Below, in pieces: positions 518 to 61,743 of a stretch of DNA of 64,000 bases. A model generated the notes under the pieces. It saw only the letters and a list, made by a program, of their open reading frames with translations. It searched no databases and was not told the origin of the DNA. The DNA is from Mytilus trossulus (taxonomy: Eukaryota). Numbering within the stretch: the stretch's first letter is position 1; each line of letters opens with the position of its first letter. The stretch is from the NCBI RefSeq assembly GCF_036588685.1, contig NC_086379.1, forward strand, positions 47,740,001 through 47,804,000, read 5' to 3'. The position numbers were made by a program, and so were the translations under genes.

Positions 518-3500
518 GTAAGTAATTGTATTATCTAGTTCATATACATCGTTTTTAATAGGATTGTGTATACATTTCACAAAGAAAGCAATGGTTATAT
601 CAAATAGTTTCTCTTATATTTGCATTTTTTCACATTTCCTAACAAATGGTAAAAACACAAATTACTCCTCAATAGGGAAATAATTTGCATTTATTCGTGG
701 ATTGCCTATACCGACAAATTTACCCCAAAGTTGAATCCAACGAAAATGAATCCACGGTACCTTAAAACATAAGTTCAAACGTTATTTATAACATTTCAAC
801 TATAGAGTGAAGTTTTGGAAACAAGGGCTTAAGTTATACACCAAAATCTTGAAAAACATTTGTAGTGCTTCTTGTTAATGATCGCTGTTATATACATCCA
901 AAATGACAAGACATTTTTGTAAATAATAATAAGTTTTATGACGAGATTAGTATATGACATTGTTTACCAATGTACGTTAACTTTGTTATTTGCATTCTTC
1001 ATCTATAGAAGCCTATACCATATTGATTCTCAGAAATTGGTCTCTTATCTGACTGATGAAACTTTGCTTATTTAGCAATAATAAGCATCTGAAAGACAGT
1101 GTTACCCACTCATGGTTATTTACATGCAAAATAAAAACGGATACGGAGTCAATTGCTTCTAGATTCCGAATGGATTGTTCAGTAAACACTACTGTCGGAT
1201 TCATCTCGCGTTTTGGCATCAGATGGTTTATTAGTAGTGGGTGGATGGGTAATTGTTTTTATTAAAGTAGACTGTAAATTTAATTTGTATCTGTTACAAT
1301 TCTCTTCAAATAACAATATAAAGTAAGATGATGTCAATTGCGTCCAAACACGGAAATAAAACATTGAAATATACATGAATGTCTATTTGATTTACGACAT
1401 TATTTGACGTATTGTGATTGGAGTATTAGAAAATAGATGTATGTAATGCAAATAAAGAATAATTGATGAACTATGTCGTAAGGGTTTTTGTTTCACGATA
1501 TCGTATGTATGACGTCATTAAATTCATTGAAAAGATTAAGGTAGCAATGATTCATAGATAATATTTTGACACGGGTCAAATTGTGCAATTTCAATTAAAT
1601 TATTCTTTTATATCATAAGATATTGTGATAAAAAAAACCAATCAATCAGTACATTAAACTTGACTTGTATTCATAGACTTTCTATTTACGGCCACGTGTC
1701 GATATCAACTCTTTTATTTTGAATTATTTATCCTACTGTGAAATTTTCGCACAATGATATGCAATAATGATTATCTATATATATATTCACGAATGACATT
1801 TCTATTTTTAATGTTCGGTCGTTAGCTATTGCCATTTAAAAGCAAAATGTAGATTTGAAAGTTACAATCCTTTATAGCTCTCTATTTCATATAAAAGCTA
1901 TTATCAATTTATCACTGAGTTAAAATATATATATATCTGAAACATGTGAAACAGTTGAGATGATTATATGAATTATGTATTCAAAGAATCACAGATTTAA
2001 ATCTGGTATCAATGATGAGTTTCTATACCAGCACTGGAACGATACCCGAGCGTTATTACACTCAGCACTCAGGAGTCAGTGCTTCTATGTTGAATTATCA
2101 TTAATACGGTGATATAAATAAATCAACTGTTTCCAAATTGCTTTTGAAATAATAAGGATGTTCTACCCCTGGAATATACGACTTTAGCGATTCTTAAACT
2201 TGTTTAACTTTGTACCTAATTTGGGCTTTTTAACTATTTTATTGAATCGTCACTGATGAGTCTTTTTGTATACTAAACGCGTGTCTGACGTACAAAATGT
2301 TAATTTTAGAATCTATAATGAGTTTAGGCATGGCTTATTATGTGTATGTGATATAAACTATTCAATATAATAACGACAACTTATTGTTTACTTGAAATAC
2401 ATATCAAACTGCTCTTTTGAATATTTGACCACATTTTTCAGATATGATAGAGGTATTTGAGTTCTGCCTCAAAATTAAAATTATGTATTGTTCTAACTTG
2501 ATGACAGAGCCTGTTTTTATAAATTAATAAATACATAATAAGTTTTAAATCATCGCAGATATTTCCTCTGTGTGTGGCTTTATATCTACTGACGTTGGTA
2601 AACATTCGGTATGTAATGATATATAATAAAGACGGAATATTTGTCAATTGAAATTGATTTTAAATAGGTACACACTACAATGTAGGGCGTTTTCTGTGAT
2701 GAGTTTATTTATTAACAGCATTTACAACTAGTAAAAAGTAAAATCACAATAATACTGGACTCCGAGGAAAATTAAAAACGGAAAGTCCCTTATAACATTA
2801 CAAAATAATACTGGACTCCGAGGAAAATTAAAAACGGAAAGTCCCTTATAACATTACAAAATAATACTGGACTCCGAGGAAAATTAAAAACGGAAAGTCC
2901 CCAATCTAATTACAAAATCATAAAATAAAACGTTTCAAAAGAATAGACATATTTCGAAAAGCCTGACTTTTATTTTATATGTATAACATGTACCGTTCAA
3001 AAGTAATTTAGTTCAAACGACACTGCATGATGAAAATTCTCAAAGACGAGTTGCTAAACACTTAAAAATTCAATGAGTAATAACGTGATATATAATTATC
3101 GTTCAATATTCAGCATGTTCTGCCACACTGTATATAGCTATGCCACTCTAATTAAACATGTTTCAGAAAAAAGATTGGCACAATGCATAAAAAAAGATAA
3201 TCAACTCTCTACAAATCACTACGCAAATACTTAACAAATGAACAACACGAACCTAATTTAAAATCATGGATAATTTTAGGTACCCCGTAAGGGATTTTCA
3301 TATCGTACTCCACATGTTATGACGATCAAGTCTTTAATCAAATAACAAATTATTCTTTATAAAAGACAAATAAAGTGTAAACGCCTTTTTCTGATCTTTA
3401 AAGACTTCTTTTGAAAACATCATAGATAGTTGGCAGAGAAACCAGTAGATTCGGCACAGTGAGTTATTATCTCAAAAAAAAGGATAAACGAAACAGCGTG

Positions 3501-6500
3501 TGATTCCCATCCTAAAGTAAATAATTGAAACCTCTCGCTTTTATTTTTCTATATAGTACCATATTTAGAAAAGCTATTAAAATAAACAGTGTGTATAAGA
3601 GGTTGTTTAAATGGTCACTATTCTTAGAACTATTCCAATCCCTAAATGTAGTTTCACAGGCGTATTTTGTACTTTATCATTAATACAACAGAAATAGCTC
3701 TACATCATTTAAATAAGCTTGGAATTTTCTAATATGTTTTCCTGGAGCATCACAGCCTTTGAGTGTCGAAATACGCGACTGGCATTAAAAAAATGGAACG
3801 GTTTATGTAAATTCACAAATTTGCGTTATGATAATTTATTCAAAAAGATATTTCAAGTACAATCTGTTCGTGTATTACTTTGCGATTTATTGTTTGCGAT
3901 TTCATGCGTTTATTTATATTACGAAATTTGATATCTCTAGCGCACTTGGTTTTATTCCAGAAATCCATGCATGTGAAATTTAAAAGATTTATATGAAATA
4001 AGATGATGTGGTATGATTGTCATATGAGAACGCTTTTAAACAGAGATCATTGACGTGGATTTTGGCAACTGTATGTCACAATACGGCTTTAAACAATAAG
4101 TCAAAAACAATGCGCAAAGCCGGCTAGTAAGGACCCTTCATATACTAATATATAATAAAAAATGATTCAATTGAGTAAACCAACAGCTTATATGTACTCT
4201 ATGTACGAAAAGAATCAATAAAAATATAAGAAAGACCAAATGATATCCACTCCATTGTACTGTTCTAGAATTAGAACAGTCACATTATTTAATGTGTAAG
4301 GGTTAAACAATATTTGTGGGCGCAAAACCCTTCACTTGCCTTGTACAGTGGTACTACTATACACTAGTCTATACAAATTCGAAGCCATGAGTATCACGTA
4401 CCAAATAAAGTTATTCCCGATGAATATCAGAAACATTTCTAATCGGCCTGTATCAGTATATAATTTAAAACAAATATATAAAATTTTGTATTGAAAATGC
4501 GTAGTAATATGAGATATAAACCAGTTTTAGTCGAGGGAAATTCGTTTTGTAAATGGTTACATAAGATCTATTACTCATGGGGAAAATTGTATAATATGCA
4601 TTCATTTCTCTTGAATTTGAGATAATAGTCTCCATATTTATAGATGCAAAGATCATTGTTTCATGTTATATGACACTTCAATATCAATAGTTTTCTTTTT
4701 ATGCCTGAATAATTATTTCAAACAGTGATGTTTTATATAATGGAATTTTACCTCATTTTAACTATACGCTTTTGATTTTTATTAAACCCAGGATGACGAC
4801 ACAGTAAAAGATCAATCTATATTTGAGGGTGGAATGTTTTATCTTTGATCAATTAATATTAGTTCATACCAAATTTCTAGTTTTATAAGTATTTCACATC
4901 ATAAACATAATATTCTTGCATTTGTTTCATTTTCAAAAGAGCATTTTCACAAAAGCCCATGTATTTTTAATCAATAGCCTTGATTTTCATTATTATTTAT
5001 TCTTAAAGGTCAAAGGGGTAAGGGTATAATATTAAGTGTATCTGCTTACCAATCCAGACAGACTGAGTGTACCCATAATTTCTTCGTGTGTTGTTTAGAG
5101 AACAGTTTTATGGTTTTCCTTACCCTTTCCTATTGTTTTTTTTCTTCGATTTGTTTGCACTGCCGTTGTGTTTCTTTGTTTTGTTTAATTTAAACGTCCC
5201 TTTGTATTTCATAAACATATTGATTGGCTTGCCATTATATAAGGATGACTCTACCTGCTTGAGTTGAAATCTAAGTTTCTAATTCATAAATGGATATTTC
5301 AAAATAACCATTTAACGAATGATTTTTTTTTCTTTTTCCAGATAAATGCAATATTTCATTCAAGTGATTATAGATCTGTATATAATTCAACCATCATCAA
5401 TTCATTATCGTAAGTATATATTATATGTGTCTGGTAAAAATAACCTTACAATAGTTTAATGTTAAATATTAAAATAGACGTGTAACCAGACATCGTGTGT
5501 ATCGGTGTACAATTTTAATTAAACTTCATATACTTTCAGTAGAAGAAGGAGCTTTTTTATGGAACCGATTATTTCGCCTCTAAAATTACCAAAATTGTAA
5601 AATATTTCCAGCCTTTTCTATACATGAGGAAACTGCACGGACTCCATATTCATGTATTTTCTCCCTAAACAATTTCTGTTTCAGTATAGTTGTCGAAGAA
5701 CGAATAAAATCGACACTATAGCAATTGTTAGGTCACCATTACGAATTGGTAGACTGATACGATATGTCAATGTCTCAACTCAGTAGCTGTGTGTTTTCGT
5801 AACCTTAGATCTTTATATACCAGTATAATGGTCTACTGTATAGTTTTACTGTTTTTTCCTAATCGACAATTGAACCAATTTGTCCTATATGTCATTCAAG
5901 GAGGCTTTTCTGTATACGCAACCGACCACACCCTTTTGGAATTCGAATTCTTCATTTTTGTTTAATGCCTTGAACTGTATCTACTTAGAGGATAAACATC
6001 GGCTAACTTTTGTCGCCTTAATTTTCACAAGTTGATTTTCTTTGAAATTATGCCAAAGATATTTTTAACCTGTATCTGTATGCAGTCTTTATATCATAGC
6101 AAAGTCGATATTTCTGAATGATACATTTCTTTGTAACTAATTTTTTGTCAATCAGACCTTGGAATTTTATTGACAATTGTTCATTCAGTTGATATAACAC
6201 GCTGGCTTTTATGCATTAAGTTCTTGAATGAGGTTATAGGCGGAAGTAAAATGAGACATAACTTCTTTGCACACTGGTTTCATAGCTATAAATCTAGTAC
6301 TTGTAGAGTTTCAACAATGATATCTTATTCCAAGCAATTAAGCAAATTCATACTTTTAATCAAGTTTATCATTTATTGCTTGTTTTTTTCATGTTAGGGA
6401 GATTAATTGCATTTTTGTTCTGTAACCGTCGCTTGTTACACTCGGGTAATGTTTATCTAACATGATCATATTGTTACTGCGTATCTCTGAACGCAATATT

Positions 6501-61690: not shown

Positions 61691-61699
61691 TATATATAA

Positions 61700-61743
61700 G
61701 CGTCACTGATGAGTCTTATGCAGACGAAACGCGCGTCTGGCGT
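61700..61743 (+). ncRNA. Type I hammerhead ribozyme, intact
   Basis: GCGUCA-CUGAUGA-GUCU(UAUGC)AGAC-GAAA-C(GCGC)G-UC^UGGCGU; predicted cleavage 61737/61738. Confidence 0.88.

Follow-up and report, generated by a model that had tools for sequence, protein, structure and literature searches.

The stretch of Mytilus trossulus DNA considered here, 64,000 nucleotides (nt) long (NCBI RefSeq assembly GCF_036588685.1, contig NC_086379.1, forward-strand positions 47,740,001 to 47,804,000; hereafter the window, in whose own numbering all positions are given), carries eight hammerhead ribozyme motifs which, on sequence comparison, belong to solo copies, truncated at the 5' end, of a hammerhead repeat of 355 nt, itself likely to be the mussel retrozyme. 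All eight very likely lie in introns of two Mytilus genes. A sequence-only reading had proposed that the intact hammerheads are antisense to their host genes and the sense copies disabled, as would result from selection against ribozymes that cut host pre-mRNA. We lean instead towards an account in which truncated solo retrozyme copies were inserted, likely by proteins of Penelope-like elements, and in which the strand pattern arises from the age of the copies and from chance, not from selection against the cutting of pre-mRNA.

The eight motifs (Table 1; copies are named by the position of their hammerhead) were recovered where, and on the strands on which, they had first been reported: a local-alignment scan of the window with the 61700 motif gave them scores of 36-88, against best scores of 24-28 in three shuffled controls, which never reached the score cut, and added a ninth motif near 26904. 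Scored with the Rfam Hammerhead_1 model (RF00163), the motifs 61700, 14447 and 19310 gave 33.0 (E 2.4e-4), 30.6 and 28.1 bits; no window motif reached the gathering score of 34 bits, the first of these being the best. A profile search (nhmmer) added four remnants, at 60584-60647, 3717-3791, 26861-26958 and 41142-41277, and returned no matches in the reversed window. The orientation counts given below exclude the last two, whose intronic position is not established. A match at 10479-10554 (E 0.69) and blastn matches at 35824 and 58418 were dropped from all counts as likely chance.

Copies outside the window were sought by scanning metagenome contigs with the 3' tail of the repeat, which yielded five short loci (L001-L005). 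One of these, L001, comprises 2.4 tandem units with a period of 355 nt, two hammerheads and a guanine-plus-cytosine (GC) content of 35%. The window copies are 63-89% identical to this monomer, but solo; the longest, 19275..19575, matches it at 82% identity over 318 columns. Two tail types are found among the copies, the second (14412-14446, minus strand) being that of 14447, and the same second type was seen among contigs of a probable RNA run, as loose ends at 19315, which would fit two retrozyme subfamilies. The repeat is covered by contigs of that run (they do not show strand or circularity), and in run X1 the summed contig depth reaches 10^5-10^6 across the copies, compared with about 45 for the flanking sequence, a figure that is not a copy number. 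A scan of GTDB gave one real copy among 21 matches, viral contigs gave none, and no outside copy from the metagenomes or GTDB was found in a host intron of known orientation, the lists of open reading frames (ORFs) being judged by eye. A contig of a cyanobacterial metagenome-assembled genome (L008, CALHGI010000550.1) carries, close to its start (196-275), a piece of the mussel repeat, probably as a product of chimeric assembly.

The accessible part of the published account of the M. galloprovincialis retrozyme, which is not of the long terminal repeat (LTR) kind, describes about 5000 type I hammerheads in repeats of 350-390 base pairs (bp) belonging to two families, with cotranscriptional cleavage in vitro at about 0.1/min and abundant circles (Cervera and de la Pena 2020; PMC7229834). 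The window repeat shares with it the genus, the type I hammerhead, the length (355 nt against 350-390 bp), the low GC content (<45%), the high copy number and the presence of two sequence types, and its identification as the mussel retrozyme, made by size, genus, GC content and copy number from that description, is likely. It departs from the arrays so described, to which it is likened by description, in that the window holds solo 5'-truncated copies only and no tandem array. In the main text of the same paper the word "intron" appears in a reference title only. The window copies also resemble the hammerheads of Penelope-like pseudo-LTRs, in being dispersed, single and truncated, in a palindromic helix III region suited to dimers, in fixed 3' ends like those left by an internal start of reverse transcription, and in a U3-A8 variant of the core; unlike the minimal Penelope-like hammerhead, they possess a helix III of 2 bp with a 4-nt loop. 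In the available text of a recent preprint, retrozymes are argued to be non-autonomous derivatives of Penelope elements (bioRxiv 10.64898/2026.07.22.740005). No Pfam match to a reverse transcriptase or GIY-YIG endonuclease was obtained in the 28 of 173 window ORFs that were scanned.

The ends of the copies bear on how they arrived. All four copies measured end 39, 40, 41 or 42 nt past C17 (window positions 16830, 19275, 23888 and 61777), and their 5' ends are cut by varying amounts; among the outside loci, L002-L004 end where the solo copies of the window end, and L001 and L005 continue. Copies that span the cleavage site and share a 3' end suggest a template that was circular or uncut, on which reverse transcription had a fixed internal start. 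Synthesis would thus begin at a fixed internal site of a circular or uncut multimeric RNA and proceed back through the hammerhead, and proteins of Penelope-like elements would likely insert the products, in both orientations and in some cases from templates already dead; the copies that remain would then decay, quickest at G/C and CpG positions. The putative fixed start resembles that of a lizard Penelope-like protein, for which the accessible part of the report describes insertion in vitro without need for cleavage (PMC11167929).

The gene context of the copies was established by mapping exons. A corin-like protein of M. trossulus (P0001) matches 17 exons in the window at about 100% identity (tblastn), and three corin-like exons are joined within one contig of the probable RNA run. 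As exons 386-523 and 5330-5410 bracket copy 2248, all six copies on this gene are intronic, with 2248 and 16754 sense and 14447, 19310, 20260 and 23924 antisense to it. Copy 60364 sits between minus-strand exons 58833-58997 and 60715-60898 of an uncharacterised gene. The next upstream exon of that gene, encoding residues 1-19 of P0011, falls outside the window, and there is a splice acceptor before 60898, which together make it very likely that 61700 is intronic and antisense, in line with the supposition that this copy, complete with 12/12 core bases, occupies an upstream intron. A GC-richer, internally duplicated repeat at 59220-60332 (110-nt tandem) adjoins the 3' end of the 60364 copy, and two inverted arms of about 30 nt, recognized by eye at 61520-61690, end just before 61700; that copy may have landed next to some other small element.

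The integrity of the hammerheads, copy by copy, is less neatly divided than had been proposed. We scored as core the twelve bases C3 U4 G5 A6, G8 A9, G12 A13 A14 A15.1, U16.1 and H17, which are all present in 14447, 19310, 61700 and 60364 and altered in 2248, 16754, 20260 and 23924. Helices I (open-ended), II and III pair in 90% of 121 cells across 11 copies, against 11-45% in a slid control, the structure having been derived from the same sequences; none of the 11 helix pairs has changed on both sides across copies, as expected of decaying copies of one source. The G12>U lesion reported for sense copy 2248 is present, but its helices I and II are broken as well, and it differs from the young-copy majority at 5/32 non-core hammerhead and 13/33 tail positions, so that it is a generally decayed copy. 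Sense copy 60364, described as broken, has indeed lost 6/11 pairs but retains its entire core. The other sense lesion, GAAA to AGAA in 16754 with stems intact, was confirmed as G12>A plus A13>G, none of the 11 helix pairs being lost; changes affect 2/12 positions in the core against 1/32 elsewhere in the hammerhead.

Among antisense copies, 14447 and 19310 do keep all twelve core bases; the former differs from the young-copy majority at 0/12 core and 2/32 non-core hammerhead positions, but in the latter the second pair of helix I, next to the cleavage site, is a C-U mismatch. Of the two antisense copies held to have decayed, 23924 has done so (G12>A and U16.1>A), but the lesion of 20260 consists of C3U together with G8A, a core covariation that the accessible part of an earlier study reports in natural hammerheads, including Schistosoma elements (PMC4209133); the U3-A8 core may mark a covariant subfamily or, in so old a copy, two chance transitions. 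G12 lies within a CpG and is altered in 3/8 window copies (two sense, one antisense), two of the three changes being CpG-type transitions, against 2/32 for the other core G/C positions and 2/56 for core A/T positions in the same eight copies. Core damage occurs outside the window too, in one (L001a) of the three outside copies with a full hammerhead, which were found by the tail alone.

Copy 16754 is the most informative of the sense copies, being a young and apparently polymorphic insertion. Contigs of four public runs were aligned to window positions 16450-19650, and contig 22 of run X3 joins 16719 directly to 16831, indicating that the 111-nt insert is absent from another mussel haplotype; a contig of run X1 enters the insert by 43 nt, so that X1 carries the copy. 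No target-site duplication is evident at the junctions of 16720-16830. Junction contigs for the antisense 19310 insert, by comparison, occur in X1 as well as in X3; this is probably the older insertion, its core still intact. The flanks differ from the X3 haplotype at 28 of 2226 nt (1.3%), and the insertion is younger than this haplotype split, from which 0.7-1.4 changes are expected in a 111-nt insert since its arrival, whereas the 16754 copy departs from the young-copy majority at 6/77 hammerhead-plus-tail positions (compared with the nearest outside copy, its identity is 91% over 113 columns). This implies that most of its differences, probably including the core lesion, were inherited from the template and that 16754 was probably inserted already broken, which argues against disabling after insertion. 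Chance and a filter sparing only dead sense copies would account for the copy equally well. One contig of the probable RNA run splices across its intron, which also holds two further very high-copy repeats, at 16898-17040 and 17520-17730 (contig depth 10^5-10^6, X1).

The orientation table itself, when tested, does not rise above chance (one-sided Fisher p 0.083-0.5). With the eight copies first noted, 0/3 sense and 3/5 antisense copies are wholly intact (p = 0.18), or 1/3 and 3/5 if the core alone is scored (p = 0.5). The two further sense intronic remnants change the original tally of 3 sense and 5 antisense, correct for those eight, to 5 and 5, and with both included the comparisons become 0/5 vs 3/5 (p = 0.083) and 1/5 vs 3/5 (p = 0.26); scoring 19310 as damaged gives p = 0.36. 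Sense copies are not depleted in the introns of this window, at 3 vs 5 (p = 0.73) or 5 vs 5. Eight copies afford a power of less than 10% even for a true difference of 60% vs 0% intact; in simulations, some 200 copies were required to detect 60% vs 30% intact and some 1000 to detect 60% vs 50%. The table is confounded, moreover, by age: decay extends through the whole of four of the five sense copies, which are old and, outside the core, 22-33% diverged from the monomer, implying long persistence. Divergence from the L001 monomer was rejected as a sole age clock, since the flanks vary between subfamilies more than the hammerhead does and the resulting numbers of copies expected intact are too low. 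The likelihood ratio of a two-parameter survivor model over neutrality is 1.2-2.9 for the eight copies, 0.2-1.7 for nine events and 0.04-1.2 for ten copies. The proposed direction does fit among the young copies, but one sense copy, 60364, has its whole core, and the window hardly moves the odds between selection and chance: an orientation rule is neither shown nor excluded.

Several observations weigh against our preference for age and chance. Each of the three young copies whose core is intact lies antisense (binomial p = 0.125), and 16754, alone among the sense copies in being young, carries two changes in its core and has perfect helices; the likelihood ratio on the eight noted copies leans to selection; and G12>U in 2248 is a transversion, not CpG decay. 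The empty site at 16754 rests on one contig of depth 4.7, a second contig, from run X2, only stopping at 16719 with 26 letters left over. An engineered fast hammerhead placed sense in an intron is reported, in the accessible part of a zebrafish study, to give 20-fold knockdown (PMC11856399), the ribozyme is probably active in mussel cells, to judge from the abundance of retrozyme circles in the available account (PMC7229834), and even a small loss of mRNA could be selectable in large populations. In Xenopus, retrozymes are stated to be depleted from introns in the preprint cited above, whose available text is without strand analysis (the words "orientation", "antisense" and "sense" are absent).

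These points bear chiefly on one alternative, which is plausible in principle and which we regard as possible but doubtful for this window: that live sense insertions cut part of the host pre-mRNA and are purged, leaving sense copies enriched for those dead on arrival, a version of the original proposal in which selection acts when the copy inserts. The strand of the three young intact copies, the young but core-dead sense copy 16754 and a likelihood ratio of up to 2.9 on eight copies are what it would predict, and it gains from the orientation-dependent knockdown by an intronic hammerhead described in the available part of the zebrafish study (PMC11856399). It also follows the logic of the antisense bias established for other intronic transposable elements, according to the accessible part of PMC3517506, namely that sense copies are selected against when they interfere with the transcript of their host; unlike those elements, which act through polyadenylation and splice signals and show a genome-wide bias in counts, the window copies show no count bias, and cleavage by the ribozyme is only proposed. 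Sense copies make up 5/10 of the total, complete purging yields a likelihood ratio of 0.04-0.9 when all ten copies are considered, and 60364 retains its whole core, all of which tell against such a filter. No published test of hammerhead orientation in introns was found in the titles and abstract beginnings searched, a search outside which most subscription papers fall.

The expected strength of cleavage also bears on that filter. The self-complementary 8-mer of helix III and loop 3 is predicted to form a hairpin at +2.4 kcal/mol and a dimer duplex at -13.3 kcal/mol, and a solo copy, its helix III being of 2 bp, would cleave slowly in monomeric form, so that splicing would mostly come first. 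The hammerhead was the predicted minimum-energy fold in 0/4 motifs and 0/5 longer contexts, and folding energy did not tell the copies apart (z -0.09 to 1.3). The zebrafish intronic hammerheads N79, N107 and N117 are described in the available part of that study as lowering mRNA less than 3-fold (PMC11856399).

A strand bias not caused by the ribozyme, through an insertion preference or strand-specific splice-like or polyadenylation-like signals in a T-rich repeat, is improbable. Termination and splicing signals are the accepted cause for other elements (PMC3517506, in its accessible part), and the repeat is T-rich on its sense strand; but there is no count bias in the window, the corin introns are almost without A/T skew (T 0.358, A 0.346), and such signals would not tie orientation to the state of the core. 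That sense copies landed intact and then had core-killing mutations positively selected is very improbable, the excess of core changes in 16754 and the alteration of G12 in two sense copies notwithstanding, given that two in-place core changes since the haplotype split have a probability of 0.003-0.01 at the flank rate (which the CpG would raise), that three sense copies show 3 core changes against a flank-based expectation of 7.1, and that the core of 60364 is unchanged.

The host genes and the remaining features of the window complete the picture (Table 1). Long, near-perfect palindromes resembling miniature inverted-repeat transposable elements occur at 9019-9141, 39468-39613 and 42539-42703, the first coinciding with a sub-threshold Rfam match to mir-4773, and a tandem array of six 87-bp units occupies 29701-30222 in an intron of the astacin-MAM gene. 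Long open frames in pieces at 43834-46693 (plus strand) are probably a decayed DNA transposon, with no Pfam match in the three pieces scanned; a 204-residue open frame at 52245-52859 (plus strand), with a signal-peptide-like start and several cysteines, likewise had no Pfam match.

Table 1. Copies of the likely retrozyme, and genes, in the window
Feature	Coordinates	Strand	Details
Corin-like serine protease gene (SEA, Fz, LDLa, SRCR, trypsin)	386..25173	+	tblastn P0001, Pfam; first exons upstream of window
Old retrozyme copy, sense, intronic (2248)	2067..2325	+	hammerhead 2247-2291; G12>U; pairs lost in helices I and II
Very decayed remnant, sense, intronic, weak match	3717..3791	+	nhmmer E 0.017
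Retrozyme copy with second tail type, antisense (14447)	14412..14556	-	hammerhead 14447-14490; core intact; Rfam 30.6 bits
Young 111-bp insertion, sense, 175 nt into 1.6-kb intron (16754)	16720..16830	+	hammerhead 16754-16797; G12>A and A13>G; helices intact
Longest copy (~300 bp), antisense (19310)	19275..19575	-	hammerhead 19310-19353; core intact; one helix I mismatch; Rfam 28.1 bits
Old copy, antisense (20260)	20226..20438	-	hammerhead 20260-20305; U3-A8 core; altered loop 3; one helix I mismatch
Decayed copy, antisense (23924)	23888..23975	-	hammerhead 23924-23967; G12>A (CpG type), U16.1>A
Decayed copy	26861..26958	-	~800 nt past astacin-MAM stop, beyond its AATAAA/ATTAAA hexamers; counted intergenic
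Astacin-MAM (meprin-like) gene, mapped exons	27744..34373	-	tblastn P0013, Pfam
Very decayed remnant	41142..41277	+	nhmmer E 1e-4
Uncharacterised gene, four exons in window	56721..60898	-	tblastn P0011 and P0012; splice acceptor precedes 60898
Old copy, sense, intronic (60364)	60329..60577	-	hammerhead 60365-60408; core 12/12; 6/11 pairs broken
Second decayed copy directly upstream of 60329..60577, sense, intronic	60584..60647	-	nhmmer E 2.8e-6; damage in core and loop 2
Young short copy, antisense, very likely intronic (61700)	61692..61777	+	hammerhead 61700-61743 complete; 5'-truncated right at helix I; Rfam 33.0 bits

The element itself is of a kind already described; the question it raises is whether host RNA is ever cut by the thousands of hammerheads dispersed through animal genomes. 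A strand bias that depended on the core would settle this without experiment, and mussels, in which copies are numerous, the rate of cleavage has been measured and insertions can be polymorphic (16754, for instance), are suited to such a strand test; the present window only poses the question. It is a tentative proposal, and one we would not call probable, that across Mytilus genomes young insertions with live hammerheads are purged from introns in which they lie in sense, antisense copies and those already dead when inserted being spared. If true, this would be a trace, visible in population genetics, of the cutting of host pre-mRNA in vivo by a transposon ribozyme, and would provide a strand test applicable to any animal with retrozymes.

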